Shown: positions 3,746 through 23,900 of the stretch, one piece after another
How positions within the stretch are numbered: position 1 is the stretch's first letter
How the letters are laid out: each line of letters starts with the position of its first letter
DNA from: an uncultured Flavobacteriales bacterium
GTDB lineage: Bacteria > Bacteroidota > Bacteroidia > Palsa-965
Assembly (NCBI GenBank): GCA_937974275.1
Contig: CALJIF010000055.1
Span: 23,290 to 87,289 of the forward strand
Length of the DNA stretch: 64,000 nucleotides
Direction of reading: 5' to 3'
Notes under the pieces: model-generated
Databases searched by the model: none
What the model was told of the DNA's origin: nothing
Seen by the model: the letters and a program-made list of their open reading frames with translations, nothing else
Position numbers and translations under genes: made by a program

Positions 3746-4456
3746 ATGAATAAAGTAGTATCCGGAGCCGATGAGGCCGTGCGTGATATTGAAAACGGAG
3801 CCACCCTCATGCTGGGTGGTTTCGGGCTTTGCGGCATCCCCGAAAACTGCATTGAAGCGCTTGTACGCAAAGGCGTTAGCGGGCTAACGTGCATTTCTAA
3901 CAATGCCGGCGTAGATGATTTTGGCATTGGCCTTATGCTGAAAACACGTCAGGTAAAAAAAATGATTTCCTCTTATGTCGGTGAAAATGCGGAGTTTGAA
4001 AGCCAGTTGCTGAGTGGTGAACTTGAAGTTGACCTTGTGCCACAAGGCACGTTAGCCACACGCTGCATGGCTGCAAAATACGGCATGCCCGCTGTATGGG
4101 TCAAAGCCGGCTTCGGTACCGAAGTAGCAGAAGGCAAAGAATCACGTCGCTTTGCATTTCAGGGAGAAGAAGGTCACTACCTGTTGGAAACCGCCTTCAA
4201 TGCTGACTTCTCGATAGTGAAAGCTTGGAAAGGCGATCGTTTCGGAAATCTTGTATTCCGTAAAACCGCTCGCAACTTTAACGATCCGATGGCAGGTGCT
4301 GCAAAAATTACTATTGCTGAAGTAGAAGAACTTGTAGAACCCGGCGAAATTGATCCCGATCACATTCATATTCCCGGCATTTTTGTGCAGCGAATTTTCA
4401 AAGGCAACAATTACGAGAAACGCATTGAACAACGAACTGTTCGTAAGCGCGGATAA
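3746..4456 (+). CDS. scoA: 3-oxoacid CoA-transferase subunit A
   Basis: Strong similarity to ScoA/AtoD (N-terminal SGADEAVRDI..GATLMLGGFGLCGIPE, CoA-transferase family I alpha). Confidence 0.9.
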   Translation: MNKVVSGADEAVRDIENGATLMLGGFGLCGIPENCIEALVRKGVSGLTCISNNAGVDDFGIGLMLKTRQVKKMISSYVGENAEFESQLLSGELEVDLVPQGTLATRCMAAKYGMPAVWVKAGFGTEVAEGKESRRFAFQGEEGHYLLETAFNADFSIVKAWKGDRFGNLVFRKTARNFNDPMAGAAKITIAEVEELVEPGEIDPDHIHIPGIFVQRIFKGNNYEKRIEQRTVRKRG

Positions 4457-4479
4457 TAAACCATTATTCAAAGCAGACT

Positions 4480-5139
4480 ATGTTAGATAAAAACGGTATC
4501 GCAAAACGTATTGCACAAGAGCTGCGCGATGGTTATTACGTAAACCTCGGCATTGGTATCCCTACGCTGGTGGCCAACTACATTCCCGCAGGCGTCAACG
4601 TAATCTTACAATCAGAAAACGGCATGCTGGGCATGGGACCGTTTCCTTTCGAAGGTGATGAAGATCCCGACCTGATAAACGCAGGCAAGCAAACCATAAC
4701 GGAAATTCCCGGCACAGCATACTTCGACTCTGCACTAAGCTTTGGTATGATCCGCGCAGGTAAAGTTGACCTTACGATATTGGGAGCAATGGAAGTAAGT
4801 GAGGAAGGCGACATTGCTAACTGGAAAATTCCGAACAAAATGGTGAAAGGCATGGGTGGTGCAATGGATCTTGTTGCTGCAGCCAAAAACATTATTGTAG
4901 CCATGCAACACGTTAACAAGGCCGGAGAATCGAAGCTGCTGCCTAAGTGTTCGTTGCCGCTGACAGGCGTAGGCTGCGTAAAGAAAATTGTAACTGAACT
5001 TGCCGTACTTGAAGTTGTAAAAGGCAAGGGCTTTGTTCTTCTTGAGCGCGCTCCCGGCATTTCGGTAGAGCAAATAAAAAACGCGACTGCCGGTCGCCTA
5101 ATCATTGAAGGAGATATTCCTGAAATGCAACTTAATTAA
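4480..5139 (+). CDS. scoB: 3-oxoacid CoA-transferase subunit B
   Basis: ScoB/AtoA-like sequence (IAKRIAQEL.DG.YVNLGIGIPT…SENG), lying immediately downstream of subunit A. Confidence 0.9.
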   Translation: MLDKNGIAKRIAQELRDGYYVNLGIGIPTLVANYIPAGVNVILQSENGMLGMGPFPFEGDEDPDLINAGKQTITEIPGTAYFDSALSFGMIRAGKVDLTILGAMEVSEEGDIANWKIPNKMVKGMGGAMDLVAAAKNIIVAMQHVNKAGESKLLPKCSLPLTGVGCVKKIVTELAVLEVVKGKGFVLLERAPGISVEQIKNATAGRLIIEGDIPEMQLN

Positions 5140-5156
5140 GCCGAAACAAACATTAA

Positions 5157-7046
5157 ATGTGGAGTAAGCTACGCACCCTGCCATTGCTGCCGGCTGCACT
5201 GGCTCTAGCTGCAGTGATTTACATTGTGGTGCGGGCATGGACGATTCCGTTTACTTGGGATGAGTCGTTCTCTTGGCTCCTGTATGTACGAAGCGACGAC
5301 TGGTGGCCTGAGGTGAATTCAGAGATGTCAGCTAATAATCACTTGCTGAATACTTGGCTGATGAAGTTTAGTATTAGCAGCAGTGAGTTTTACTTGCGAA
5401 TACCAAATATTCTTGCGGGCATTGTTTATTTAGTTTTCGCCCTGTGTTTTTCGCGCCGCGAAGAAAATCCACTCAGGCAAGTGGCCGTTTTTCTTTTGCT
5501 GGCAGGGCATCCCTATTTATTGGAATTTTTTTCCATTGCACGCGGATACGGATTAGGTAACGGAATAATGCTGGCCGGTTTTTGGATGCTCTGGCGCTGG
5601 TGTCGGGATAACCACCTTCGAGATGCATTTTGGGGCCTTTCCATGCTTGCATTGGCTGCGTTTGCAAATCTTACGCTTATTTATGTTTTATTTGGTGCAA
5701 CAGCTGCTGTACTGTTGCGTTTGACTGCAGTTGCATCGCGTCTGCAGTGGGAGGCTAAGTTTGTGCGCATGCAGTTGGTCAGTTTTCCTGCTCTGGTTGT
5801 TGTGTTGCTCCTTGTCCCCTATTCCATGAAACTAAAGGAAGCTGGCGCTCTATTTTTTGGAGCACGTGGAAGCTGGTTTCAGATAACATGGCGTTCGTTG
5901 ATTGACCGGATGCTTTATGAGATAACGTTTCCTGCATTTTTGAAAGATTGCGGCGCAGCATTTTTTCTTATTGCGGCGATCATAGGCATTATCACAGCTG
6001 TTGTACTTCTTCTTAAGCAATGGCGTAAAGCGCTCAATGCAGATCAGTCGTTTCTAATTGTACTCAGCGGTGCCGCTGCACTTTCGGTATTCGGTCCCTT
6101 GCTGCAAAGTGCAGTATTGGGTACAAATCTCTTAACTGAACGTACAGCATTGTTTTACGTACCACTGCTCATGTTGTTGTTTGTGCAGCTGTTTCGATTA
6201 GTTAAAAACAAACCGAAAATTGCATGGGCAATTTATCTGCCCTTACCTCCTGCTCTTGCTTTATTTCCCTTCGTCCTTAATCTTTCTTATCAACGCGACT
6301 GGCCATATGAACGCACGATGAATGAAATTGCTGCCGAAATAAATGCATTGGCGAAAAAAGAAATGATTGTGGCAGGTATTGAAATGCAATTTTTTCCTAA
6401 TCTGAATTACCTCCGGAGCACAGACAGGATTTCGCAAAACGCAGGAATTCATGAAATAAAGAGTCCTTTGACACCTTACCAGTGGTTACTTATTTATTCT
6501 CGTGATAAGAACAAATATCCGGGTTACCGACTCTATAAAACGCTAAATGAGGGAAAGGTTTTACTCATGCAGAATAAATCGTTCAATTCAGTGTCCGATT
6601 GGGCCTTGATTGAAGAGAACTTTGATCGGCCAACCTACAAACAAGCAGTGGTAAATATTTCAGGGACACCCCACGGCACGAGCAATGTGTTATTTGGCGG
6701 TGCCGGAGAAGTATATCCTTACACAAAAAAGTTTGCCATTCCGGATTCGCTCGATGACAAATACTTGCATATTTCCACTCATCTGGATGCATATCGGGCG
6801 CAGTCGCATTTTGGCGCATCAATTCTGTATTACATCAAAAGAAAAAATATTGAACATATTGCGATGACTGAATTTAATTTGCTCAATCATTTACCGGGCA
6901 AGAATGCATGGAAGCATATATACACCAGAAATTTGCTGGACATGCCTGTTTGTTCAGGAGATACCCTTGTAGCTATGTTTTTTGTACGCTCAAGGGATCG
7001 ACTTTACTTCGACAATTTACGCGTAAGTGCGGGTGTAGCACAGTAG
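5157..7046 (+). CDS. GT-C fold glycosyltransferase, ArnT/PMT (GT39/GT83)-like polytopic membrane protein
   Basis: 629 aa with about 10 or more TM helices. An acidic D-E motif sits in the first extracytoplasmic loop (TWDESFSW) as in ArnT/PMT. Only 18 bp downstream of scoB. Confidence 0.55.
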   Translation: MWSKLRTLPLLPAALALAAVIYIVVRAWTIPFTWDESFSWLLYVRSDDWWPEVNSEMSANNHLLNTWLMKFSISSSEFYLRIPNILAGIVYLVFALCFSRREENPLRQVAVFLLLAGHPYLLEFFSIARGYGLGNGIMLAGFWMLWRWCRDNHLRDAFWGLSMLALAAFANLTLIYVLFGATAAVLLRLTAVASRLQWEAKFVRMQLVSFPALVVVLLLVPYSMKLKEAGALFFGARGSWFQITWRSLIDRMLYEITFPAFLKDCGAAFFLIAAIIGIITAVVLLLKQWRKALNADQSFLIVLSGAAALSVFGPLLQSAVLGTNLLTERTALFYVPLLMLLFVQLFRLVKNKPKIAWAIYLPLPPALALFPFVLNLSYQRDWPYERTMNEIAAEINALAKKEMIVAGIEMQFFPNLNYLRSTDRISQNAGIHEIKSPLTPYQWLLIYSRDKNKYPGYRLYKTLNEGKVLLMQNKSFNSVSDWALIEENFDRPTYKQAVVNISGTPHGTSNVLFGGAGEVYPYTKKFAIPDSLDDKYLHISTHLDAYRAQSHFGASILYYIKRKNIEHIAMTEFNLLNHLPGKNAWKHIYTRNLLDMPVCSGDTLVAMFFVRSRDRLYFDNLRVSAGVAQ

Positions 7047-7112: not shown

Positions 7113-7841
7113 ATGAATACACCGAAAAAACTCAGTATCGTTATTCCTGCGTATAACGAGGCCGCCACTATTCATCTGATTCTCAACAAGGTGATTGCTG
7201 TTGAACTTATCCAGAACATGACCAAGGAGATTGTCATAGTAAATGATTGCTCTAAGGACGATACTCAGGCTGTGGTGGAAAAATACATAGCTGATCATGT
7301 CGGGCATGACATCCGATTATTTAATCAACCCTATAATCAGGGAAAAGGCGCTGCGTTGCATAAAGGCATTGAAATTGCCTCCGGCGATTATATCATAATT
7401 CAAGATGCTGACCTGGAATACGATCCGGCAGAATACAATATTCTCCTCAAACCCATTGTAGACGGTTTTGCCGATGTGGTTTTTGGTTCGCGGTTCATGG
7501 GAGGGCGTCCGCATCGTATTCTCTTCTTCTGGCACACCATAGGCAACAAGTTTCTTACTTTCCTTTCAAACATGTTTACCAATCTGAACCTTACGGATAT
7601 GGAAACATGCTATAAGCTGTTCGACTCAAAAATGATCAAATCGCTCAAACTTCGTGAAAAGAGGTTTGGATTTGAGCCTGAAGTAACAGCACGCATTTCG
7701 CGCATACCCAACGTGCGTATATATGAGGTTGGTATTTCGTACTATGGCCGTACGTATGAAGAAGGTAAGAAAATAGGCTGGAAAGATGGATTCCGGGCGA
7801 TATTCTGCATTCTCAAGTATAATATCTGGGCACGCAAGTGA
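7113..7841 (+). CDS. GT2 polyprenyl-phosphate sugar synthase (ArnC/GtrB/DPM1-like)
   Basis: [10 protein letters not shown]…[10 protein letters not shown]…[12 protein letters not shown]…VVFGSRF, with a C-terminal amphipathic/TM tail. Classic GT2 UndP-sugar synthase. Confidence 0.85.
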
Positions 7842-10177
7842 GAGCTTATTACCATCGTGTGTTTACCGATAAAGGACTGCTTCTTGTAATCGGAGTTGGT
7901 CTGTTACTTACTTTTTTTTATTTCGGCCCGTTGGTTACGCATCCGAGCTCTCGCTACTTTGGAGCAGGTGGTGACGGTATGCAGATTTACTACCAGACCT
8001 ATTACCACGTGAAATATGATACCGCGTGGTGGCATCAACACAGTATGAATTACCCCGATGGCGAGAATATTTTCTTCACGGGAGCCCTGCCAATGTATAC
8101 GAATATCATGAAGATTTTCGGATCCGGCGCTGCTGAAGCATCGATCGGTTTACTCAATCTACTCATGATATTTTCGCCGTTGTTTGGAGCAATTTTCTTG
8201 TACGCACTTTTCAAGCATTGGAAGTTGCCCTGGTGGTATGCCGCATTATGTGGTGTAGGTATTATGTTTTGTTCGCCTCAACTCGACCGCATGTTGGGAC
8301 ATTATTCTCTTGCTATAAGCTTTATTATTCCGGCACTGATTTATTCGTTAGCTAGATTTTACGATTATCCGAGCATCAGATTGAGTTTGCTCATGGGCCT
8401 GCTCATCTTCTTTGCTGCAGCGACACATTTATACATGCTGGTGTTTTGTCTTGCGGCATGCGGCTTGTATTGGTTTGTTTTATTTATCACACGCGACCGA
8501 GGGTTTAGCCGAGTGAAATTTGTGGCGTTGCATTTCTCGCTTCAAGTTGTAATTCCGGTTGTGCTGACTCAGGTAATTCTCCAACTCACAGATCACGAAA
8601 CTGATCGAACGTCTATTCCATGGGGCTTCGAGGTGTTTACTTCGAATTGGAGCAGTGTATTTTATCCTTATTGGCGCGTTTACGAAAAATATGTATCCGG
8701 CTGGTTTTTTCCTGAGAGCGGCAGCTATGAAGGAGCAGCATACGTTGGCCTTGCAGCAATATTTGGATTGTTGGTAATCGTGGTAATACAATTAATTCGA
8801 CTGATACGCCGGCGATTTGATTTGATCTTGAGAATTTCGGATAAAAAAGTACTTAATATACTTGTTTTGACAGCACTCCTTTTATTGTTTCTTTCATTCG
8901 GTTGGCCGTTTCTGTTAAAAGACGACGGTAGTTGGATCAAGTATGCCGGACCGCTCAGGCAGTTCAGGGCATTAGGACGATTCGCGTGGATGTTTTTTTA
9001 CGTAGTAAATATTCTTGTTGTATATAGGCTTTGGAAATTAGTGGAGCATCGTACGAATTATTCCGGCAAAGCGTTGCGTTGGTTGGTGTCCATTATGGTA
9101 CCGGCATTGTTATTTTTCGACACCTGGGGCTCAGCATCACATCTTCAAGAACGATTAAATAATGAAATTGTGGAGTTGAGTGATACACAAAATATTCTTC
9201 CTCAAAACGCCTGGCTTCGAAAAATCAAGGTGAGTGATTATCAAGCCATACTTCCGCTGCCATATTATCATAACGGCAGCGAGGGACCACAGCTTATGCC
9301 GGCGAACCACGCCATAATTAATATCACTTATATTATTTCCCTTAAAACCGGTTTACCCATGCTTTCCATGCTTTCCGGGCGCAGTTCACTTTCGAAAGCC
9401 GCCGAGCACATTGCGATGGTTAAAGATCCAGTAAAACCACTTAGCTTGCTTGCACGCTTGCCCGATCAACGACCTTTTTTGGTGATTGCGCGTAAAGATG
9501 ACCTCAATACAAACGAAGCAGAGATACTTGACCTTTCCGAGTTGTTGTTTGAAACTCCGGATTACACTGTACATCGTTTGCAGCCTTCAAAAATGCAGGA
9601 GCGTGTTGCGCAACAATATTACAAACACCTTTTAGCCTTTGAAGCACAAAAAACTTGGCCCGTATGGCCGTATCTAAGTACAGATTCGGTTGTAAATTTC
9701 TCTTGTCGTGATTTTGAAGAAGTGCAAAATTATGGGCCACCTTTTCGCGGGAAAAAGTCAATGAAAGTAAATGGTGGACGTTTCGTTTATAATGTACTTT
9801 ACGATGCCAAAGTAGCCGGTGCAATTCCCGGAAATTACAGCATTACGTTCTGGTTAGCGAATTTCGACCAAGATTTAATTGCACGATCCTACGTAGAAGT
9901 GGCAAGCTACACCGGAGACCAATTAGATACCGTGGTGTATGGGAATATGTTTGAATCTTGCGTGGCAATTTCAGGGCACTGGTCGCTGGAAGAAAGAATC
10001 ATTAACATCAAACATCCCGAACAGCGTATCAAAGTAACGCTTTTCAATTTCGATATACCCGAGAAATCACCCATATACATCGATGAATTACTCATCAAAC
10101 CTGTAAACACACAGCTGTTTGATGTGCAGAAGGATTCTATTCAACACAATAACCGCACCTATTACCGCAAGCCGTGA
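7838..10177 (+). CDS. large polytopic membrane protein, YfhO/GT-C-like with a C-terminal periplasmic domain
   Basis: 779 aa. The N-terminal ~430 aa are multi-TM with a [11 protein letters not shown] motif reminiscent of YfhO, and the C-terminal ~340 aa are soluble. The start overlaps the upstream GT2 gene by 4 nt (ATGA coupling). Confidence 0.5.
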
Positions 10178-10905
10178 CCGACATCAGTTTTGTATTGCCT
10201 TCATATAAAGGAGCTGCACAATTGGAGCAATCGCTGCCGTTATTGCAACAGTGGCTGAATAGCTTAGGGAAAACATGGGAAATTATTGTTGTTGATGATG
10301 GCTCGGAAGATGGCGGTGCTACAGAGGATGTTGTAAAGCGTGCAGGTTGCAAATTCATCGGTCTTCCGAAAAATATGGGCAAAGGAGGAGCTGTGCGAGC
10401 CGGTATGCGCGAAGCAAAAGGAATTTTACGATTGTTTACAGATTCCGATGTGCCCTTTGACGAAGCCTCGATGGAACGTTTTATACAATATCTTGAAGAG
10501 AAGCAATTTCACATTGTTATCGGAGACCGCACGCTGGAGACATCGCGTTACTTCACCGAAATTTCAGGAGCACGTAAACTGGGAAGTGGTATTTTCACCT
10601 TCTTCGTAGGTCGATTTGTTACTACCGGTCTGCACGATACACAGTGCGGCCTGAAAGGCTTTCGTGCAGAAATTGCGGATGATCTTTTTGGTGTTTCACG
10701 CTTAAACAGCTTTGCGTTTGATGTGGAACTACTTTACATTGCACTCAAACGCAACTACGATATCAAACGCCTTCCCGTTGTATTTAAGAGTAGTCACGAT
10801 GAATCGAGCGTGAGTTTGCTTAAACACGCTCCGGGGATGCTGGTTGATTTATTCCGTATTAAATGGAATCACCTTACGGGAAAGTATAACAAACGAACTA
10901 CCTGA
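10174..10905 (+). CDS. GT2 glycosyltransferase (dolichyl/undecaprenyl-phosphate beta-glycosyltransferase-like)
   Basis: SFVLPSYKGA…IIVVDDGSEDG…FTDSDVPFD…DTQCGLKGF. 4-nt overlap with the upstream gene. Confidence 0.85.
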   Translation: MTDISFVLPSYKGAAQLEQSLPLLQQWLNSLGKTWEIIVVDDGSEDGGATEDVVKRAGCKFIGLPKNMGKGGAVRAGMREAKGILRLFTDSDVPFDEASMERFIQYLEEKQFHIVIGDRTLETSRYFTEISGARKLGSGIFTFFVGRFVTTGLHDTQCGLKGFRAEIADDLFGVSRLNSFAFDVELLYIALKRNYDIKRLPVVFKSSHDESSVSLLKHAPGMLVDLFRIKWNHLTGKYNKRTT

Positions 10906-10910
10906 TACTG

Positions 10911-11606
10911 ATGAATAGAGATCTTACCAATGCCATACGCTATGTAATGGATGAATGGATTCCGCCGGTAGTGCGTGACAGCCGCTGGTTTATGTATCCG
11001 TTTTTCTGGCTTGCGTATCGTGGACGCAACATTAGCGAAGTGATGGATTTTAAAAGTCGTGTTTACAGCTTCACTCCGGAAGATTATGACCGCTTTTACA
11101 ATAATCTCAATACCATTTCACGCAACCGTATTACCGATATCAATAAGCCGAGCTTGGCCTTTATTCTGGATAACATTGATCCTTCAGCCGAATCGCTGAT
11201 TGATGTTGGATCCGGGAATGGTTATTTATTGCGTACTATTCGCGAACGTCATCCGAATCTCCAACTCACAGCTTTCGATATCAAAGACAAGGACGACTCA
11301 ACCGAGTACACTTACGTTAAAGGCAATATCGAACAAATGCCTTTCCCCGATAAATCGTTTGATGTTGTAACCTGCAGCCATACGGTAGAGCATTTGCTCA
11401 AGCTGGAGCAATGTATGAAAGAGCTTGTGCGCATTGCCCGTAAGCAAGTGTTCATAGTTACGCCCTGTCAGCGTTACTACTATTATACACTGGATGAGCA
11501 CGTAAATTTTTTTCCGTTCAAAGAAAAATTAACTTCTGCAATTCCACTCACCAAATACGAGTGCCATAAACTTAATGGCGATTGGGTATATCTTGGCAAG
11601 CCGTAA
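10911..11606 (+). CDS. class I SAM-dependent methyltransferase
   Basis: Motif I DVGSGNGYLL and motif post-I/II FDVVTCSHTVEHL, within the glycosyltransferase operon. Confidence 0.8.
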   Translation: MNRDLTNAIRYVMDEWIPPVVRDSRWFMYPFFWLAYRGRNISEVMDFKSRVYSFTPEDYDRFYNNLNTISRNRITDINKPSLAFILDNIDPSAESLIDVGSGNGYLLRTIRERHPNLQLTAFDIKDKDDSTEYTYVKGNIEQMPFPDKSFDVVTCSHTVEHLLKLEQCMKELVRIARKQVFIVTPCQRYYYYTLDEHVNFFPFKEKLTSAIPLTKYECHKLNGDWVYLGKP

Positions 11607-11618
11607 GCTTCATTACAA

Positions 11619-13208
11619 ATGAAACTCCGCATACCCCGAAAAGCGCAATACAATATTGCCGAGATAGTTTTTTTCGGCGTAATGCTGTTTGTTGTTGCGA
11701 TTCCAATCACCTCCGGGAATTGGTTTGTTACCGAGGACGGTGCTTCGCACAGTTACAATGCAGGTGTATTGTACAATTTACTTTCGGGTAATGATGATTT
11801 TCTGGGGCAGTATTACAAGATCAACACAGTGCCTTCGCCAAACTGGCTGGGGCACTTGCTGCTGGCCTACACAGGGCATTGGTTTGGAGTGGCAGCCGGA
11901 GCCAAAATTCTGCATCTCACCTATATCGTAGGTTTTGCCCTGGCATTCCGGCAACTCATGTTTACGGTTTCGCCGCAGCCGCGTTTAATGAGTTACCTGG
12001 TCTTTCCTCTAATTTATAATGAGGTTTTCCTTTTTGGTTTTTACAACTATTGTCTGGGCATGGTATTCATGCTGGTTGTAATGAACAGCTGGCTTAGGTT
12101 TGTGACAAACCCTTCGTGGTGGCGCGCGTGGTGGCTTTTAATTGCATTAACGCTGCTTTGGTTTTCGCATCAGCTTACTTGGGCATTTGCCGGGCTGTTT
12201 GTTTTTTGCCATCTGCTTTATCTTCTTATTACTCAAAAGCAGTTTTTTTCAGTATTAAAAAAAGGAATAGTTGCACTAGCGATTTCTTTACCGTCGCTTA
12301 TTTGTCTGTTTATTTACATGGCAAACGGAGGAGGAGGTTCGGGAATGCACTTTGTTACATTATCAAAAAGATGGAGTGATTTTTCAGATGGTTCTTTTTT
12401 TCGGATTTATTTTGGTCAGGAGGATGCACTGGGGATATGCTTTCTGTTGCTGTTAGCTGCGCTGGCTGTTGCAGGTGCTGTTCGCCATTACCTATTACGG
12501 AGAAGTTACGTTACGGACTTATCAAATCAAAAACTATTCTGGCTGATAATCTTTGTATTGTCTTTTCTGATCATGTTGTTTATGCCCGAAGCGATTGGTA
12601 ACGGCGGGGTGATCGGCATACGAGTAGTATGGATTGCTATAGTTTTTCTGATGATACTGGTAGCTCAATTTCGTTTGTCATCGCGTTTGGGGGCTGCCGC
12701 GGGTGCAGTTTCGGTATTACTTGGGGTGCTGCATATCGCTTATTTCAAACCTTCTTTATTGGATTACAACCTTGATGCACATGCGGCACGTGATGCCGGG
12801 AAATATATCCGGGATAAATCTACAGTACTTGTGTTGCCATTTACTTACAAATGGTTGCACCTGCACATTGGTCAATATGCCATTGCAGGACGCGAAGTGG
12901 TTTTGCTTGATAATTACGAAGCACAGCACAACTACTTTCCGATTGAATGGAATTACGAAAAACTGCCTCACAATTATCAGCTTGCATCATTAAGCTGGCC
13001 TGCGGTAACTTGTGCCTGGCGCTGGCCGGAAATGAAAAACAAACCCGCGAAGCAGGCAGATTACATTATGATTGTTGGCGATTTGAATAATGAAGGTACC
13101 GGCGATCCCGTTTGCCGCACAAAAATTTCCTGCGCAATGGATTCACTCGATTACAGGGCAATATTTAAGCGGAACGAAATTACGCTGTATGAGTATATGC
13201 CCGATTAG
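11619..13208 (+). CDS. polytopic membrane protein, paralog A (uncharacterised; possible GT-C-like)
   Basis: 529 aa with about 11 TM helices followed by a ~130-aa C-terminal soluble domain. Has an N-terminal DGASHSYNAGVLY motif. Clear paralog of the next gene. Confidence 0.6.
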   Translation: MKLRIPRKAQYNIAEIVFFGVMLFVVAIPITSGNWFVTEDGASHSYNAGVLYNLLSGNDDFLGQYYKINTVPSPNWLGHLLLAYTGHWFGVAAGAKILHLTYIVGFALAFRQLMFTVSPQPRLMSYLVFPLIYNEVFLFGFYNYCLGMVFMLVVMNSWLRFVTNPSWWRAWWLLIALTLLWFSHQLTWAFAGLFVFCHLLYLLITQKQFFSVLKKGIVALAISLPSLICLFIYMANGGGGSGMHFVTLSKRWSDFSDGSFFRIYFGQEDALGICFLLLLAALAVAGAVRHYLLRRSYVTDLSNQKLFWLIIFVLSFLIMLFMPEAIGNGGVIGIRVVWIAIVFLMILVAQFRLSSRLGAAAGAVSVLLGVLHIAYFKPSLLDYNLDAHAARDAGKYIRDKSTVLVLPFTYKWLHLHIGQYAIAGREVVLLDNYEAQHNYFPIEWNYEKLPHNYQLASLSWPAVTCAWRWPEMKNKPAKQADYIMIVGDLNNEGTGDPVCRTKISCAMDSLDYRAIFKRNEITLYEYMPD

Positions 13209-13307
13209 CCGTTAAACACGTCCAAACTTTGATTTTCCCTCTCATGAGTACAAGTTTAACGTAAGTATTTAATAAGAGTATCTGGTGATACTTAATTTAT
13301 CACACAC

Positions 13308-14906
13308 ATGTCTATATTCATACCCGAAAAATTGTTACGTTCAGACAGATTCAGAAACCGGATCGAAGTTATTTTCTTTTGCGGAGTAACTTTATTCCTA
13401 CTCAATCCGCTCTCTGCTTCAAAATGGTTTCTTACACTCGATGGGGCGGCGCACAGCTACAATGCGAGTGTGTTGTATAAACTTGTGTTTGGCAATGATG
13501 ATTTTTTAAATCAGTTTTTTTCAGTGAACACATTGCCTTCCCCAAATTGGACCGGGCATATACTACTAGCTTTTTTCAATGAATGGTTTGGAATTGCATT
13601 GGCAGCTAAAATTGTTCATTTGCTTTATGGGGTCGGACTTGTATTTGCTTTCCGTTGGTTGATGTTTGTAGTTTCTCCTTATCCGCGAATAATGAGTTAC
13701 CTGATTTTTCCAATCGTGCTGACTTTAGTTTTCCAGCTGGGGTTCTACAATTTTTGCTTTGGAGTGGTTTTTATGTTACTGGGAATAACTGCCTGGCTTA
13801 AGTATTCTCCTAGTACCCGGTGGCCCAATGTATTACTACTTCTAGTATTGTTTACTGCGGGTTGGTTTTCGCATCAGCTTTCTTGGTTGTTTACAGGACT
13901 TTTTGTGTTTATTTCTCTTACAGTTAAGATGATTGGTCAACGCAACCTCAGACAATTATTACAGCCTTTGATGATCGCGGTTTTCAGCTTTTCACCTTCA
14001 CTTATTTTTTTTACAATTTACACATTGGGGAAATCCGCATCTACCGGGTTTAAATTCGATCCGATAGCAACTAGGTTGGATTTCTTTTTCAGTATGCATT
14101 CGGCACATATACTAACACAATCCGTAAAGCCACTGTACGAATTACTAGCGGTAATTATTTTGGCGGTAATTGTAATTGGTGTAATAAATACGTACATATT
14201 AAGCAAGAACGCAAATAGGGAAGCGAGATCGTTGACTTTGCTTCTGGCAATATTTACTGCATTGTGTTTTGGTGCCGTTTTACTCTTTCCAGAAGAAGCA
14301 GGTGGTGGCGGAATTTTTGGTGTACGAGTAGAGTGGATTACTTGGATTTTTTTGCTGGTGATTGTTGCCAGATTGCGATATCCAAAGCAGTGGCTGTATT
14401 CCTTCGCTGTAGTCGCCGTATTTATTACGCTTAGCAAAAATCTCCTGATAAAGGACCAAGCCGAACATTTGAATAACAATGTGCATGCTATTACTGAAGC
14501 AGGCAATTACATCCGCGAAAGGAGCACTATTGTTGTTTACTCCTTTTCGGATGAAGTACTTGATTTTCATTCAGGTGAGTATGCCATTGCGGGACGAGAT
14601 GTTGCACTGCTTAATAATTATGAAACCGCACAGGAATATTTTCCGTTAAAAAATAACGACTCCCAATTCCCCTATCGTTTTACCCTTGCTTCATATGATC
14701 CGCAGGAATTGCATTGCTTGAATGGATGGAAAACGGAAAAAAGTAAACCTACCCGACAAATAGATTATGTAATGTTTGTAGGTAACATCAACAACAATAA
14801 AGACACCTTGTGTACGCACAAATTAATGTCAGCAATGGACTCGCTCAATTATGAGGTCGTTTATAGGAAAAGACATGTTGTTCTCTACGAACATCAGCCC
14901 GAATAA
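13308..14906 (+). CDS. polytopic membrane protein, paralog B (uncharacterised; possible GT-C-like)
   Basis: 532 aa, alignable with paralog A along the full length (DGAAHSYNASVLY, SPNWTGH, MSYLIFP…). The C-terminal motif AMDSLNYEVVYRKRHVVLYE matches AMDSLDYRAIFKRNEITLYE in paralog A. Confidence 0.6.
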   Translation: MSIFIPEKLLRSDRFRNRIEVIFFCGVTLFLLNPLSASKWFLTLDGAAHSYNASVLYKLVFGNDDFLNQFFSVNTLPSPNWTGHILLAFFNEWFGIALAAKIVHLLYGVGLVFAFRWLMFVVSPYPRIMSYLIFPIVLTLVFQLGFYNFCFGVVFMLLGITAWLKYSPSTRWPNVLLLLVLFTAGWFSHQLSWLFTGLFVFISLTVKMIGQRNLRQLLQPLMIAVFSFSPSLIFFTIYTLGKSASTGFKFDPIATRLDFFFSMHSAHILTQSVKPLYELLAVIILAVIVIGVINTYILSKNANREARSLTLLLAIFTALCFGAVLLFPEEAGGGGIFGVRVEWITWIFLLVIVARLRYPKQWLYSFAVVAVFITLSKNLLIKDQAEHLNNNVHAITEAGNYIRERSTIVVYSFSDEVLDFHSGEYAIAGRDVALLNNYETAQEYFPLKNNDSQFPYRFTLASYDPQELHCLNGWKTEKSKPTRQIDYVMFVGNINNNKDTLCTHKLMSAMDSLNYEVVYRKRHVVLYEHQPE

Positions 14907-18431: not shown

Positions 18432-18458
18432 AGGGCATGAAAAATGCCCTTTTCTTTT
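18432..18458 (+). terminator. intrinsic terminator-like hairpin overlapping the M1 peptidase start codon
   Basis: AGGGCAT-gaaaa-ATGCCCT followed by TTTCTTTT. The ATG at 18437 lies inside the 5' arm. Confidence 0.55.
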
Positions 18459-20866
18459 GCAGTCTTTTTATCGTTGCGTTCTTACACGCGCAGCAGCAAC
18501 GTCCTGTTTGCCACCATCGTCATGCACCCTATACCCATCACAACACACAACCGGCAGCTACCAACGAACGTAGCGACACGTTGAATGTATTGCACTACAT
18601 GATTCATCTGAACATGACCGATTTCACGACGAACACTATCGCCGGTTACACCGATGTTCAGTTGACTCCGTTAATGAATAATATCACTACGGTTTCGCTT
18701 GATTTGCTGGAACTCACCGTTGATTCGGTCACACTGAATCAGCAAAGCATCAATTACAGCTATAACGACACACTGATCATCGCATCATTGCCCAACGCAA
18801 TCAATGTGTCTGACACCATTCAATTGCGTGTGTACTATCACGGCAATCCTCAAACCGATGCTTCCGGATGGGGCGGATTTTATTATTCCAGCGGCTATGC
18901 TTTTAATCTTGGAGTTGGATTTGATGCCAATCCGCACAACTACGGTCGTGTGTGGTTTCCATGCTTCGACAATTTTGTTGAACGTAGCAAGTACACGTTT
19001 CATATTGGCACAAACAATAACCGAATTGCATATTGCAATGGAACATTAACATCGGATACTACAGATGCCAACAGTGTTCGGTGGAGAACATGGTACATGA
19101 ATGAAGAAATTCCAACGTATCTCGCATCAGTTGCTGTGGCTCCCTACACACAAGTCAACTGGACACACAACGGTGTTAACGGTCCAATTCCTATTGTATT
19201 AACTGCATTGCCTGCCGATACCACCGGAATGAAAAATTCTTTCGTGCATTTGCCGGATGCGATCGATGCGTTTGAAGCACGCTATTACCAACACATGTGG
19301 AATCGTGTAGGATTTTGTTTGGTGCCTTTCAGCAGCGGAGCAATGGAACACGCCACAAACATTGCTTATCCGCGTTTAGCAGCAAACGGTTCGTTGACAT
19401 ATGAAACATTAATGGCGCACGAACTATCGCACCATTGGTTCGGTGATTTGGCTACGTGCAGAACGGCAGAAGATATGTGGCTGAACGAAGGTTGGGCATC
19501 CTATTCGGAATATTTGTTTCTCGAATGGGTGTATGGCATTAACAATTATCGCGCAGGAATTTTAGCCAATCATGATGATGTTGTTCACTTTGCTCACTTG
19601 CGCGAAAACGGATTCCGTGCAGTTTCCGGAGTTCCACACAATTATACCTATGGCGATCATGTGTATTTGAAAGGCGCAGATGTAGCGCATACGTTACGCG
19701 GCTATATGGGCGATTCGCTGTTCTTCGCAGGATTACGTTATCATTTATCGCAAAGTGAATACAAAGATGTGAGTAGTGCGGACTTCCGTGATAACTTAAT
19801 TACGGCAACGGGCTTAACTTATCTGAACGATTTTTTCAACGATTGGGTTTTTAACGGAGGTTTTCCGCAATTCTCAACAGATTCCGTAACTGCATTGCCG
19901 GTGGGAAATTCGTTTGACGTTACTGTTTATGTAAAACAAAAGTTGCGTGGAGCTCCAAACTATTTTACGAACGTACCACTCGATTTCACGTTCTTCAGCG
20001 CGAATGGAGACACCATCAATGAACGACGATTTGTTAGTGGCCCTCTGGCAACATTCACCACTTCCCTACCCTTTCAACCTGTTTATACTGCCGTTGATTT
20101 CAATGAAAAAATATCCGATGCAATCAGCGATGAACATCGAGTAATCGGAGCAACCGGTCAGTTTGTGTATACACATGCACGATGCACATTAACAGTAAAC
20201 AACATCAGTGATACGGCATTGGTGCGAATAGAACATAACTGGGTTGCACCGGATACGATTAAAAATAACGTTAACAATTTTAGAATTTCATCCGAACGTT
20301 ATTGGAATATTGACGGCGTATTACCAACCACATTTTATGCAAAAGCACGATTATATTACGATGGAAGAACCACAAGCACAGCAGGCCCTTCCCAATGGTT
20401 AGATCACGATTTGATGCCGGTTAATCAAGATTCAATCATTTTGTTGTATCGCAGAAATGCTGCTGATGATTGGCGCGAATGGCCTTATTACACCAAGACT
20501 CGTATTGGTTCCGCGACAACTTCTAAGTATGGATATGTAGAAGTTGATTCACTTGCTTTAGGGCAATACACTTTCGCCTGCGGGGTTTCATCTGTAGTTG
20601 GATTACAAGAAGAATCATTAGTTGATAACGGATTTGTGATTTATCCGAATCCGGCAAATGAACAAGTTGTAATTACAAATTCAGATCCTGCAGTCCGGAC
20701 CGAAACAGTGGAAATACTGGATGCTCTTGGACTATTGGTTCTTTCTGCACAAGTTAATGCAAGCACTTCAGTAATTTCAGTTGCTGCTCTTCCGACAGGT
20801 ATGTACTTTGTCCGTATCACCACGAATCAAGGTGTGGAACTGAAAAAGTTGAATATTGTCCGTTAA
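18437..20866 (+). CDS. M1 family zinc aminopeptidase with T9SS C-terminal sorting domain
   Basis: GAMEH exopeptidase motif, HELSHHWFG…(18 aa)…WLNEGWA zinc-binding motif and a signal peptide. The C-terminal tail (…YPNPANEQVVI…MYFVRITTNQGVELKKLNIVR) resembles a T9SS CTD. Confidence 0.85.
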   Translation: MKNALFFCSLFIVAFLHAQQQRPVCHHRHAPYTHHNTQPAATNERSDTLNVLHYMIHLNMTDFTTNTIAGYTDVQLTPLMNNITTVSLDLLELTVDSVTLNQQSINYSYNDTLIIASLPNAINVSDTIQLRVYYHGNPQTDASGWGGFYYSSGYAFNLGVGFDANPHNYGRVWFPCFDNFVERSKYTFHIGTNNNRIAYCNGTLTSDTTDANSVRWRTWYMNEEIPTYLASVAVAPYTQVNWTHNGVNGPIPIVLTALPADTTGMKNSFVHLPDAIDAFEARYYQHMWNRVGFCLVPFSSGAMEHATNIAYPRLAANGSLTYETLMAHELSHHWFGDLATCRTAEDMWLNEGWASYSEYLFLEWVYGINNYRAGILANHDDVVHFAHLRENGFRAVSGVPHNYTYGDHVYLKGADVAHTLRGYMGDSLFFAGLRYHLSQSEYKDVSSADFRDNLITATGLTYLNDFFNDWVFNGGFPQFSTDSVTALPVGNSFDVTVYVKQKLRGAPNYFTNVPLDFTFFSANGDTINERRFVSGPLATFTTSLPFQPVYTAVDFNEKISDAISDEHRVIGATGQFVYTHARCTLTVNNISDTALVRIEHNWVAPDTIKNNVNNFRISSERYWNIDGVLPTTFYAKARLYYDGRTTSTAGPSQWLDHDLMPVNQDSIILLYRRNAADDWREWPYYTKTRIGSATTSKYGYVEVDSLALGQYTFACGVSSVVGLQEESLVDNGFVIYPNPANEQVVITNSDPAVRTETVEILDALGLLVLSAQVNASTSVISVAALPTGMYFVRITTNQGVELKKLNIVR

Positions 20867-20997: not shown

Positions 20998-23900
20998 ATG
21001 TCTAAGCGACTTCTTCTCTTCTTTGCCGGCGCGGTTACCTTAACCATGCTGATTGTGCCGTTTATTGCCTCCGACAGCAAATCGGCTCCGGCGGCAACAA
21101 AAATTAATCCTGCTTTTGGTGCGTATGTTTCTGCATACACCTCGGGTATGATTTCCAACGAATCAAAAATTCGAGTTCGATTATCGGAAGATTACACCGG
21201 AGAAATTCAGTACGATAAGCCAACCGCTGATTCCTATTTCGACTTTTCTCCTTCCATCGAAGGCGAAACATTCTGGATCGATGCCCGCACGTTGGAATTC
21301 CGTCCTTCAAAACGCTTGCCTTCCGACCAAGCCTATACGGCGAAGTTTAAGTTATCGAAGCTGATTTCCGACTTACCTGCCGACCTGGAGGTGATGGAAT
21401 TTAATTTCCGCACACTTAAACAAGGCGTAGTAGTTCAAATTGAAGGAACCAAGACAATTGACAAAAAAACATTGCGCTGGCAACAATTGAAAGGTACGTT
21501 GCACACCAATGATGCTGCGGATGACAAAGAAGCTGAAAAGACATTTACTGCCACACAAAATGGAAAAAAGTTACCGGTGCGCTGGACCCATGAATCCAAC
21601 CACACAACACGCTATTTTGTTGTTGACAGTATTGCACGCACCGATGTTGCGGGTGAAATTGTGTTGAACTGGGATGCAAAAGCAATTGGTGGAAGCCAAA
21701 CCGGATCAGTGAAGCAAGCTATTCCTTCCCTTAAAGATTTTAAAGTAACCGGAGTGCGACTGGAGCAAGGTGAACAACAATGTATCATCATTCAGTTTTC
21801 TGATCCATTGGATGAAAAACAAAGTGTAGACGGATTAATCACCCTAAACGGAGATATCGTTCCAATGCGATATACCATCCAGGACAATGATATCAAAGCT
21901 TATCCGTCCGACCATCTTAGCGGTGATTACACGCTGCGTGTCAATAAAGGCATCAAGAACATTTTGAAAACTAAAATGCCTGCAGGATTTTCTACAGGTG
22001 TGAAGTTCGAAGATCTCAAACCGGGAATTCGGTTGGTTGGAACAGGCGTCATTTTGCCCAATACAGATCGCGGTATGTTATTCCCGTTCCAGGCAGTTGG
22101 TTTAAATGCGGTTGATGTACGGATCATCAAAATTTACGAGAACAATATTCCTCAATTCTTGCAAGTGAGTTCGTTGGACGGTTCAAGCGAATTATATCGT
22201 GTCGGTAAAAAAATCATCAAGAAAAAAATAGATTTAAATGTTTCCAACAAAGCAGAACTCAGCAGTTGGGGCACGTACTCGTTAGATCTTTCCGAATTAG
22301 TTAAAACTGAACCCGGAGCTATATACCGCGTTACTTTAAGTTTCAAGCAAGCCTATTCAACGTACGACTGTCCGAAAGATTCCAGCGAAACACCGGTTGC
22401 CATAGAGGAAAATGTAGAAGAGGAAGAAGATCCGGATGGCTACGGTTATTACAGCGATTATTCCGACGACTCGTATTATTGGTGGGATGGTGATCGTGAT
22501 GATCCTTGCGATCCATCCTATTATTACGGAAGAAGTATCAGTAAAAATTTCCTGGCTTCCGACTTAGGATTATTAGCGAAGAAAGGAAATGATGGAGGTA
22601 TGCTCCTAGCTGTAAATCAACTTCAAACTACAACACCAATTGCAGGTGCTCAGTTAGAAATTTACGATTTCCAACATCAACTCATCACAAAATCTGTTTC
22701 CGATGCAGAAGGTTTGGCGAAAGTAAACGTAGGTAAGAAAAAACCGTTTTTATTAATTGCTAAACACGGAACACAACGTGGTTATTTGAAACTGGATGAT
22801 GGCACTTCGCTTTCCTTAGGTGCATTCGATGTTGCCGGCGCAACCGTACAGAAAGGATTGAAAGGATTTATTTACGGAGAACGCGGTGTATGGCGTCCGG
22901 GAGATACATTGTTCCTTGGTTTTATATTGGAGGACAAACAAAAAACCTTACCTGCCACACATCCTGTTACGATGGAATTATATAATCCACGTGGTCAGTT
23001 GGTAGAAAAAATGATTAAAGCGCAAGGTGTAAACGGATTTTATTCGTTTGCGCCTGTAACGGATGCTGAAGCACCAACAGGACGCTGGATTGCAAAAGTT
23101 AAAGTAGGTGGCGCAGTATTTACAAAAGATCTGAAAGTGGAATCCATTATGCCGAACCGCTTAAAGATCATGTTTGAAGTGGGTAAAAACGGCTTAGTTT
23201 CTGCAGCCGATCAAACGAAGTTGACATTACAATCACAGTGGTTACATGGCGCAAAGGCGCGCAATTTGAAGGCTGATGTTAGAGTGAGTTTAGCACAAAC
23301 TACCACAACATTTAAAGGTCATGACAAATTTCAATTTGACGATCCTGCATCCAGCTTCTACAGCGAAGAACAAACCGTATTCGACGGACGATTAGATGAA
23401 AATGGTGTTGCTCAATTTGAAGCCGGTGTGGATGTGAAACAAGCTCCCGGTATGTTAAAAGCTGCATTCAACACACGTGTATTTGAAGAAGGCGGTGCAT
23501 TTAGCGTCGATCGTTTCACGGTAAATTATTCACCGTACAAAAATTACGTAGGTGTGCTTGTGCCGGAAGGAAATTTGTGGGGTGGCATGTTGGAAACAGG
23601 AAAAGATCATCAGATCATCGTCGGTTCAGTGGACGAATACGGCAATAAAACTTCTCGCAGCAACTTACAAGTTAAAGTGTACAAGCTCGACTGGCGTTGG
23701 TGGTGGAGTTCCTCTTACGAAAGTTTGGCGCACTATGTATCGGGGAATTATTACTCGCCTGTATTGGAACAAACCATCAGCACAACAAATGGTCGCGGAT
23801 CATTTAAACTTAAAGTTGAGAACGAAAATTGGGGACGTTATTTAATTCGCGTTACCGATATGGAAAGTGGACACTCTTGCGGTTCCATAAGCTATTTCGA

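Follow-up and report, generated by a model that had tools for sequence, protein, structure and literature searches.

A and B, two adjacent membrane proteins encoded in the window (the whole 64,000-nucleotide stretch analysed here, from an uncultured Flavobacteriales bacterium), are probably periplasmic glycosyltransferases of the inner membrane that use polyprenyl-phosphate sugars; in an operon that probably serves glycan modification, they take up a last position whose content varies. This reading draws on a structural model and on analogy with known systems. The two proteins represent an uncatalogued sequence family of a known kind, the GT-C glycosyltransferases, and constitute a new family within it. 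GT-C enzymes assemble or modify many of the glycans on cell surfaces, including those that act as antigens, phage receptors and determinants of antibiotic resistance (ArnT, Emb).

Proteins A and B are paralogs over their full length

Protein A (529 aa; 11619..13208, + strand) is a membrane protein with a predicted GT-C fold, 11 TM helices and a C-terminal alpha/beta domain, and protein B (532 aa; 13308..14906, + strand) is its paralog over the full length. The original prediction had described the pair as adjacent, co-linear paralogs, and both reading frames were recovered at these positions. BLASTP aligned them end to end, A residues 1-529 with B residues 1-532 (213/535 identities, or 40%; 58% positives; 9 gap positions; E = 1e-139). 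The paralogy is far beyond chance and extends past the TM regions: A and B are 42% identical in their soluble C-terminal domain (A residues 397-529), and the region of highest conservation, at 64%, is the first outer loop, EL1.

Most of the motifs that had been predicted to be shared, namely DGA(S/A)HSYNA(G/S)VLY, SPNW(L/T)GH, MSYL(V/I)FP and AMDSL(D/N)Y...LYE(Y/H), fall into register in this alignment, but the glycine-rich loops listed with them are not homologous. GGGGSG of A (residues 237-242), in the variable outer loop EL4, is aligned with KSASTG of B, and AGGGGIFG of B, in loop EL5, is aligned with IGNGGVIG of A. The term 'tandem-duplicated' is correct in that the paralogs are adjacent, but it does not describe a recent event. 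The duplication is old, as A and B share only 40% identity and form separate clades. When compared to the locus L034, where both copies are intact, dN/dS was 0.146 for A and 0.155 for B, and by this measure both are functional copies.

The model of protein A has a GT-C fold

An AlphaFold2 model of A reached a pLDDT of 89.7 and a pTM of 0.90. When this model was searched with Foldseek, the top 23 matches were all GT-C enzymes, led by ArnT at E = 3e-5, with TM-scores of up to 0.52 (an apo ArnT entry). Sequence identity in the structural alignments with GT-C structures was only 6-12%. The model contains 11 TM helices in the helix arrangement of a GT-C core, which has 7-13. As modelled, then, A has a GT-C fold, and B has it likewise by its 40% full-length identity to A, as expected from the original prediction of GT-C-like transferases. 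The closest relatives by structure are found in GT-C(A), a subclass with members such as PMT, ArnT, STT3/PglB and Aft/Emb. RodA/FtsW, WaaL and Wzy-type folds were absent from the fold matches, and a Wzy/WaaL/SEDS-type fold was rejected for A and B. Enzymes of that type are the diphospholipid-sugar glycosyltransferases of families GT119-GT135 (PMC10920833).

Could A and B instead be transporters, permeases or non-catalytic scaffolds whose helical bundles merely look like GT-C? The fold search returned GT-C for A and not a transporter fold. Its first transporter match had a Foldseek probability of 0.11, and transporter folds as a group gave probabilities of at most 0.15 and TM-scores of about 0.1; the transporter reading was rejected on these scores. 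The scaffold reading is countered by the 12 polar or aromatic residues that are invariant in the family: they include an Asp immediately following TM1 and gather on a single face of the membrane, which fits an active site and not a scaffold. We consider this whole group of explanations barely credible.

The GT-C reading also comes with a topology. Lys and Arg make up 12 of 48 residues in the inferred cytoplasmic loops of A, compared with 4 of 107 in the inferred periplasmic loops. Within the C-terminal domain, Cys465 and Cys499 are both present in 29 of 49 family members (29 and 30 when the columns are counted singly), a co-occurrence expected for an extracytoplasmic disulfide. The putative active site and the C-terminal domain of A and B are predicted to lie on the periplasmic side.

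The family is large and missing from curated libraries

A and B had been predicted to belong to an unrecognised family, and for curated libraries this is the case. Neither protein matched Pfam or NCBIfam, even at E <= 1, and none of 49 diverse family members matched NCBIfam convincingly. Searches against PDB sequences with single sequences and profiles gave nothing significant; the profile search came no closer than EmbA, with an E-value of 0.7. By these comparisons, the family has no sequence-level link to any characterised glycosyltransferase family.

The sole curated model touched is Pfam DUF6541 (PF20176), which describes membrane proteins of no known function and is matched by 3 of the 49 members. 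The one match inspected (P0019) is partial, pairing residues 140-319 with positions 244-410 of the 646-position profile, and its score of 32.3 bits (E = 4.6e-8) lies just above the cutoff of 29. A and B themselves are not DUF6541 members, with no match even at E <= 1 (gathering cutoff 29 bits). A literature search on DUF6541, and on the family DUF6311 discussed below, found no papers.

The apparent size of the family depends on the search method. A word-indexed homolog search gave just 18-19 matches, even with a 49-sequence profile as query, whereas an exhaustive HMMER profile search gave 10,277 clusters at 50% identity. These relatives come from at least 6 phyla and are all labelled 'hypothetical protein'. 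Judged by these sequence searches, the family is large and common in environmental bacteria, not rare.

Neither A nor B matched the PMT, PMT_2 or ArnT profiles of GT39 and GT83 (Pfam and NCBIfam, E <= 1). In favor of the GT-C reading, PMT_2-type GT-C genes adjoin family members at two loci by Pfam (L003 and L021), with homologous neighbours from the same BLAST cluster at two more (L024 and L029). A and B might be PMT-like protein O-glycosyltransferases that move a polyprenyl-phosphate sugar, e.g. mannose, onto Ser/Thr of secreted or envelope proteins. We regard a PMT-like role of this kind as unlikely, and a cell-envelope glycan as the most likely acceptor.

Invariant residues outline a candidate active site

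Among 49 diverse members with an average column identity of 26%, 12 residues are invariant in 49/49: D40, G41, H44, N47, G140, N143, H184, R335, N432, Y433, E434 and F440 in A numbering. B keeps the full set (D45, G46, H49, N52, G145, N148, H189, R340, N437, Y438, E439 and F445). In the model of A, each of the 12 is found in an outer loop, at the outer end of a helix or in the C-terminal domain. Their proposed roles rest on topology and analogy rather than superposition.

EL1 (A residues 32-90; 11712..11888, + strand) contains helices at residues 41-55 and 76-89 in the model, and carries the invariant D40, G41, H44 and N47 together with the near-invariant P74, N75 and H79. The Asp of the N-terminal loop motif in the original prediction is the invariant D40 of A, or D45 of B. 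EL1 and D40 supply the structured loop with a conserved acidic residue that is expected after TM1 of a GT-C enzyme. For GT-C enzymes, the catalytic residue is proposed to be an Asp soon after TM1, such as D31 of the GT136 enzyme ORF12 (PMC11127046), and we propose EL1 as a candidate catalytic loop. R335 (codon at 12621..12623, + strand; 49/49 conserved) lies at the outer end of TM10 according to the secondary structure of the model and, by analogy, is a putative ligand of the donor phosphate. The C-terminal alpha/beta domain (A residues 397-529; 12807..13205, + strand) holds the invariant N432-Y433-E434 and F440 as well as the Cys465/Cys499 pair.

ORF12 of Citrobacter combines 11 TM helices with a helical domain and a catalytic Asp that both follow TM1, and with a further domain that follows TM11 (PMC11127046). 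A shares this layout, with D40 as the candidate catalytic Asp. GT-C(A) enzymes with solved structures are PMT (GT39), ArnT (GT83), STT3/PglB/AglB (GT66) and the mycobacterial AftA, AftB, AftD and Emb. The A/B signature, DGxxHxxN...PNWxGH...GFYN...H...R...NYE, differs from theirs, and A and B have a compact alpha/beta domain of about 130 aa at the C-terminus where those enzymes have MIR, CBM or OST periplasmic domains.

A and B are the last genes of an operon with polyprenyl-phosphate-sugar synthase-like genes

The genes of the operon are tightly packed, with 4-nt overlaps at 7838-7841 and 10174-10177 followed by gaps of 5, 12 and 99 nt; A and B are the last genes. A scan for terminators between A and B found none that was convincing. 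Promoter-like sites were below shuffled expectation in a scan with the sigma-70 consensus, which is not appropriate for Bacteroidota.

Two of the upstream genes encode soluble family-2 glycosyltransferases. GT2a (242 aa; 7113..7841, + strand; Pfam Glycos_transf_2, E = 6e-33) has as its closest solved relatives GtrB sll0501, the Pyrococcus Dol-P-Man synthase (DPMS) and ArnC, and is of the polyprenyl-phosphate-sugar synthase type (Dpm1/GtrB-like). GT2b (243 aa; 10174..10905, + strand; Pfam Glycos_transf_2, E = 1.4e-19) is about 25% identical to GT2a, and its best NCBIfam matches, none of which reached the cutoff, are PpgS, dolichyl-phosphate hexose transferase and ArnC. Directly before A lies a SAM-dependent methyltransferase (231 aa; 10911..11606, + strand; Pfam Methyltransf_11, E = 5e-16).

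The remaining two genes encode membrane proteins. The 629-aa multi-TM protein (5157..7046, + strand) carries, by hydropathy, D35-E36 close behind TM1 and ends in about 250 aa of soluble sequence. D35 and E36 are invariant in 7 orthologs, 2 of which gave sub-threshold PMT_2 matches (best E = 2e-4), and the protein is a probable fourth GT-C of the operon. The 779-aa protein (7838..10177, + strand) has a predicted GT-C fold and a C-terminal beta-sandwich resembling carbohydrate-binding modules.

The 779-aa protein had been called YfhO-like. It is GT-C by fold, but neither it nor two orthologs (L001 and L032) matched Pfam YfhO (PF09586) at E <= 10; precomputed labels place it in DUF6311 (PF19830), and it had no Pfam match of its own at E <= 10. 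A and B likewise did not match Pfam YfhO at E <= 1. A loose sharing of a D-x-x-H/Q-x-Y loop motif between this protein and A/B, also part of the original prediction, was not borne out: hhalign of the family profile gave a probability of 10% and did not align the N-terminal loops. The corresponding probability for the 629-aa protein was 5%. Across single sequences and ortholog profiles the values were 0.5-10%, and a sequence-level link of A/B to the upstream membrane proteins was rejected. The resemblance between A/B and the 779-aa protein is at the fold level only. Like A and B, the DUF6311 protein lies in this operon, has a GT-C fold and carries an acidic residue soon after TM1 (D46, conserved in at least 90% of homologs); it differs in being about 250 aa longer, in its CBM-like beta-sandwich and in having no detectable sequence or profile homology to them.

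A GT2 polyprenyl-phosphate-sugar synthase gene beside a GT-C gene is the arrangement of three-component systems such as GtrA/GtrB/GtrC, CsbB/GtcA/YfhO, GacI-L and Citrobacter GT136, and GT2a and GT2b provide it here. The operon departs from the 1:1:1 set in having two GT2 genes, four GT-C-like genes and a methyltransferase gene. It also differs from Gtr-type systems in that GT2a and GT2b have no TM anchors, unlike GtrB and ArnC, and in that no flippase gene is recognised. In a hydropathy survey of the operon and of the ORF map of the 64-kb window, no flippase of the GtrA-like/GtcA, SMR, MATE or other types was recognised; within the operon there is neither a small 4-TM ORF nor a further membrane ORF left unassigned.

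The final slot varies among syntenic loci

We used the A/B-clade alignment to find syntenic loci, across which GT2a is 92-96% and the methyltransferase 93-96% identical. Otherwise syntenic operons carry A only (L005 and L033), a B-type gene only (L006 and L032) or both intact (L034). A T8 homopolymer lies inside B (14005..14012, + strand). In the relative L001/L002, the B ortholog is broken into two ORFs by a 1-nt insertion immediately behind the T8 run; L001 has an intact A beside its frameshifted B copy. The variability of this last slot suggests alternative or additive terminal decorations, and the content of the GT-C slot also varies among related strains in three-component systems. It is plausible that acceptor specificity has diversified, as the original prediction proposed.

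Some GT-C enzymes form paralog heterodimers. If A and B were an obligate pair like Pmt1-Pmt2 or EmbA-EmbB, they would be one enzyme rather than two specificities. The genes are adjacent and co-oriented both here and in L034, and independent tandem pairs of family members occur at L017 and L022. An obligate pair is nonetheless at odds with the operons that have A only or a B-type gene only, with the frameshifted B copy beside an intact A in L001, and with the full invariant-residue set retained by each paralog. We therefore consider an obligate heterodimer very improbable.

The association with GT2 genes reaches beyond the syntenic loci. GT2a orthologs that are 63-74% identical lie directly upstream of distant family members at L007 and L017 and within 3 kb of one at L031, while the family members themselves are just ~25% identical. 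At 13 of 32 loci, a Dpm1/GtrB-type GT2 gene is located near a family member. About 60% of the examined family loci have no GT2 within ~10 kb, and many have unrelated neighbours; apart from GT2 and PMT_2, no recurrent partner was found among the neighbours at distant loci. Apparently incidental neighbours there include a sigma-54 activator, a GFO oxidoreductase, an MFS transporter, a radical SAM enzyme and YdjM. If A and B used polyprenyl-diphosphate-linked oligosaccharides, they would act as an oligosaccharyltransferase, ligase or polymerase that transfers preassembled units en bloc, independently of the adjacent GT2 enzymes. We view this as improbable, more so than a PMT-like role, and favor donors made by the GT2 enzymes.

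Discussion

With polyprenyl-phosphate sugars as donors, the pathway would begin at the cytoplasmic face, where GT2a and GT2b (soluble, Dpm1/GtrB-like) would transfer sugar from a nucleotide sugar to polyprenyl phosphate. The lipid-linked monosaccharide would then be flipped across the membrane. At the periplasmic face, A or B would hold the donor in a groove built from EL1 and the outward-facing ends of TM helices, with the donor phosphate gripped by R335 and perhaps also by K96, H79 and H184. D40 would activate the acceptor hydroxyl, and the sugar would be moved onto the acceptor. The C-terminal domain, which carries the invariant N-Y-E motif and is predicted to be periplasmic, may help to position that acceptor. 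Points against this pathway are the missing TM anchors of GT2a and GT2b, the failure to recognise a flippase gene, the lack of a sequence-level link to characterised glycosyltransferase families, and the family loci with no GT2 nearby or with unrelated neighbours.

A broader and rather doubtful reading is that the operon encodes a wholly periplasmic multi-GT-C assembly line of Bacteroidota that uses two different polyprenyl-phosphate sugars and methylation, in which A and B are interchangeable terminal modules. It would comprise four GT-C-like enzymes, with a predicted GT-C fold for A and the 779-aa protein, and the closest analogues would be arabinan/mannan synthesis in mycobacteria and the ALG steps of the ER lumen. 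If it is true, the presence, absence or frameshift of A and B would set strain-level surface-glycan types, and the DGxxHxxN...R...NYE family would merit its own CAZy GT family, distinguished by a C-terminal acceptor-binding domain of a new kind.

The principles of glycobiology are unaltered by these findings. A and B illustrate that the GT-C superfamily is so divergent that entire families evade sequence annotation, and the GT-C assignment, together with the invariant residues and the recurrent Dpm1-like GT2 partner, gives this family a concrete annotation, targets for mutagenesis and candidacy as a new CAZy family. The polymorphism of A only, B only and A plus B at a fixed operon position offers a natural experiment for relating genotype to glycan structure in uncultivated Bacteroidota.

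Paralogy of A and B and size of the family

The plus-strand ORFs of protein A (11619..13208, 529 aa) and its paralog B (13308..14906, 532 aa) lie exactly where the original prediction placed them, as co-oriented neighbours 99 nt apart. Their predicted co-linear paralogy is borne out by a full-length BLASTP alignment (40% identity, 58% positives, 9 gap positions, E 1e-139). The first outer loop is 64% identical, the helices after it and the second outer loop 58-60%, the C-terminal soluble domain 42%, and outer loop 4 and TM8-9 16-25%. The paralogy is thus real, co-linear and wider than the TM regions; paralogy of the TM regions only is excluded by the 42% of the soluble domain. The motifs quoted from the pair are present, but the two Gly-rich loops occupy non-equivalent positions: in the BLASTP alignment, GGGGSG of A pairs with KSASTG of B, and AGGGGIFG of B with IGNGGVIG of A.

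The family was correctly called unrecognised. Pfam and NCBIfam gave no match to A or B even at E ≤ 1, and neither single-sequence nor profile search found anything significant among PDB sequences. A word-indexed search returned 18 relatives, all "hypothetical protein" and chiefly from Bacteroidota MAGs. At E ≤ 1e-3, exhaustive HMMER search with the family profile matched 10,277 cluster representatives (clusters at 50% identity), of which 2,580 pass E ≤ 1e-30; given the 10,277 clusters, "small family" is the wrong description. The best 150 HMMER matches are nearly all 500-580 aa long and mostly cover profile positions ~10-525, indicating that the whole architecture, including the C-terminal domain, is conserved in a large family. 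When one genome per species was scanned, members, all from MAGs, were found in Bacteroidota, Acidobacteriota (Thermoanaerobaculia, Bryobacterales), Deinococcota (Trueperaceae), Planctomycetota, Sumerlaeia and Actinomycetota. Among 49 diverse members, three touch Pfam DUF6541 (in the one inspected the match is partial and scores 32.3 bits, where the cutoff is 29), and NCBIfam convincingly covers none. One family member weakly matches (E 1.9e-4) the NCBIfam model of putative glycosyltransferases LA_3751/LA_3752, which are adjacent genes in Leptospira.

Predicted fold and conserved residues

We modelled A with AlphaFold2 on a 19-sequence alignment (mean pLDDT 89.7, pTM 0.90). Its structural neighbour list is headed by Pmt4 (18.3), AftD (17.4), STT3B (17.2), AftA (16.5), Pmt2 (15.9), AglB (15.8), ArnT (15.7), ALG12 (15.2), AftB (14.4) and PglB (12.7), with ALG9, PIGM, DPY19, ALG3, ALG6, PIGU, GAB1 and PimE below. 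The top 23 Foldseek matches are all GT-C, the class of membrane glycosyltransferases with lipid-linked sugar donors (E 3e-5 for ArnT; the TM-score reaches 0.52 with the apo ArnT entry). MFS transporters and GPCRs follow, with probability ≤ 0.15 and TM-score ~0.1. On these fold scores, a transporter that lacks a catalytic loop in the periplasm is rejected. The predicted fold of A thus agrees with the GT-C-like reading originally proposed, and the model supports placing A and B in the GT-C superfamily. SEDS, WaaL and Wzy-type structures were absent from the Foldseek matches. It is quite improbable that A and B act as a diphosphate-donor oligosaccharyltransferase or polymerase.

In the model, TM1 (residues 13-31) is followed by the first outer loop (32-90; helices 41-55 and 76-89 plus a short strand), then another ten TM helices (91-117, 121-139, 142-163, 167-183, 185-206, 209-235, 268-292, 302-321, 333-348 and 355 to ~380) and an alpha/beta domain (397-529). 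With topology taken from the model helices and the K/R-rich N-terminus assumed to be inside, K/R make up 12 of 48 residues in putative cytoplasmic loops and 4 of 107 in putative periplasmic loops. ORF12, a GT136 enzyme that has been characterised by experiment, combines 11 TM helices with a helical domain past TM1 and an extra domain past TM11; its essential residues include D31 past TM1, and H106 and R349 in the donor-binding pocket (PMC11127046). A follows the same plan in TM count, in the domains after TM1 and TM11, and in the Asp after TM1.

Across the 49-member alignment (mean column identity 26%), D40, G41, H44, N47, G140, N143, H184, R335, N432, Y433, E434 and F440 (A numbering) are invariant, and near-invariant residues include P74, N75, H79, K96, P323 and Y420; B has all of them. 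In the inferred topology, all of the invariant and most of the near-invariant residues fall in an outer loop, an outer helix end or the C-terminal domain. GT-C enzymes show this pattern, in which the conserved polar residues form one group at the outer side of the membrane, with an Asp a few residues past TM1 at its head. There is next to no chance that A and B are non-enzymes. By analogy, D40 would be the base, R335, K96, H79 and H184 may have a donor phosphate role, and N432-Y433-E434 may position the acceptor. In 29 of the 49 members Cys465 and Cys499 are found as a pair, and either is almost never found alone, which fits a disulfide in an extracytoplasmic domain.

The operon and its variable last slot

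A and B end a close-packed plus-strand array with two 4-nt overlaps and later gaps of 5, 12 and 99 nt. It starts with a 629-aa membrane protein (5157..7046), followed by GT2a (7113..7841), a 779-aa membrane protein (7838..10177), GT2b (10174..10905) and a SAM methyltransferase (10911..11606); a convergent DUF6973 gene lies downstream of B. GT2a and GT2b are soluble family-2 glycosyltransferases. Among solved structures, GT2a is closest to polyprenyl-phosphate glycosyltransferases, namely GtrB, Pyrococcus Dol-P-Man synthase and ArnC. In NCBIfam the top matches of the two enzymes stay below cutoff; they are AglJ, PpgS, dolichyl-phosphate hexose transferase and ArnC. Directly past TM1, the 629-aa protein carries an invariant D35-E36, and two of its seven orthologs give sub-threshold PMT_2 matches (best E 2e-4); it is probably a fourth GT-C. 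The proposed motif link between A/B and the 779-aa protein did not hold at the sequence level (profile-profile probability 10%), and the comparison likewise shows no sequence relationship of the family to the 629-aa protein (5%). Precomputed labels assign all but two of the 779-aa protein's homologs P0172-P0270 to PF19830 (DUF6311), and some UniRef names agree. The window protein and two orthologs had no hmmscan match at E ≤ 10 in the 2025 Pfam, which may be a database-version discrepancy.

Further downstream, translations alone suggest a large secreted zinc peptidase with HELSHHWFGD and a C-terminal sorting-type tail (18437..20866) and an 1862-aa alpha-2-macroglobulin-like protein (20998..26586). 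Both appear unrelated to A and B.

Six related Bacteroidota contigs keep the whole array in synteny, and the content of the last slot, the A/B end, varies. A and B are both intact in the window and in relative locus L034. L005 and L033 have A only, and L006 and L032 only a B-clade copy. L001/L002 has A and a B ortholog split (~12381-12390) into ORFs of 248 and 293 aa by a 1-nt insertion right behind a T8 run, which is conserved in relatives (window 14005..14012). The split could reflect an error in the assembly, a pseudogene or an on/off site prone to slippage. It is very improbable that A and B are an obligate heterodimer. The A and B clades separate in a neighbour-joining tree, indicating an old duplication followed by differential retention.

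Against L034, A has a dN/dS of 0.146 and B one of 0.155, looser than for GT2a (0.022), the methyltransferase (0.026) and GT2b (0.055), all values being approximate because dS is near saturation. Both paralogs are, on these sequence comparisons, under purifying selection. The operon shows a sharp rate contrast: the cytoplasmic enzymes (7113..7841, 10174..10905, 10911..11606) are 91-96% identical to L034 (approximate dN/dS 0.02-0.055), and the GT-C-like membrane proteins (5157..7046, 11619..14906) 73-82% (0.08-0.18).

L006 (CALRTD020000120.1) is labelled a Synechococcus sp. UW140 MAG and carries a Bacteroidota-type operon, in which GT2a shares 93% and the methyltransferase 96% identity with the window; the contig probably got into that MAG by contamination during binning. 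Comparison of window 3746..5139 with L001 (972-3538), L032 (1-2574) and L033 (1-2538) showed an Acyl_transf_3 gene (~386-390 aa) between the two CoA-transferase subunit genes just upstream of the operon in these three loci, missing in the window and L034. Acyltransferase-3 proteins frequently O-acetylate surface glycans, so this gene may be a further variable part of the same locus.

Distant members recur beside similar genes. Of the 32 loci analysed, 13 contain GT2a-type GT2 genes. In L007 and L017 a GT2a ortholog lies immediately upstream of the family member, and L031 has one within 3 kb of it; these orthologs are 63-74% identical, while the family members are just ~25% identical. PMT_2-type GT-C genes adjoin members in L003 and L021 (Pfam), with homologous genes in L024 and L029. 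The remaining neighbours are heterogeneous. Independent tandem pairs in L017 (8107-11536, Sumerlaeia MAG) and L022 (8213-11539, Solibacteraceae MAG) make tandem duplication look like a recurrent habit of the family.

Proposed pathway

Most likely, A and B work like GT-C(A) enzymes in a Gtr-like periplasmic modification pathway. Going by what is known of GT2s of the Dpm1/GtrB/ArnC type, GT2a and GT2b would synthesise two polyprenyl-phosphate sugars on the cytoplasmic side. After flipping, A, B and the 779-aa and 629-aa proteins would move the sugars onto an envelope acceptor at the periplasmic face, and the methyltransferase may act on the sugar or donor. The operon fits the three-component Gtr-type definition in part, since it pairs two GT2s with four GT-C-like proteins and a hydropathy survey found no obvious flippase candidate in the operon or the ORF/TM map of the 64-kb window. 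We favour a glycan over a protein acceptor because the 779-aa partner has a CBM-like domain and the slot varies; that A and B are instead protein O-glycosyltransferases is rather unlikely. On a glycan, A and B would add alternative or additive terminal residues. On the boldest reading, a fairly unlikely one, the operon would be a multi-GT-C periplasmic assembly line whose swappable terminal modules yield glycan types.

Tested against PMT, PMT_2, ArnT, YfhO and DUF6311, A and B belong to none, and contact with DUF6541 is marginal, through a few relatives. Their sequence family is new and a candidate for a CAZy family of its own, within a kind of enzyme that is well known. The family is conceptually unsurprising; it has value for annotation and is a good experimental target.
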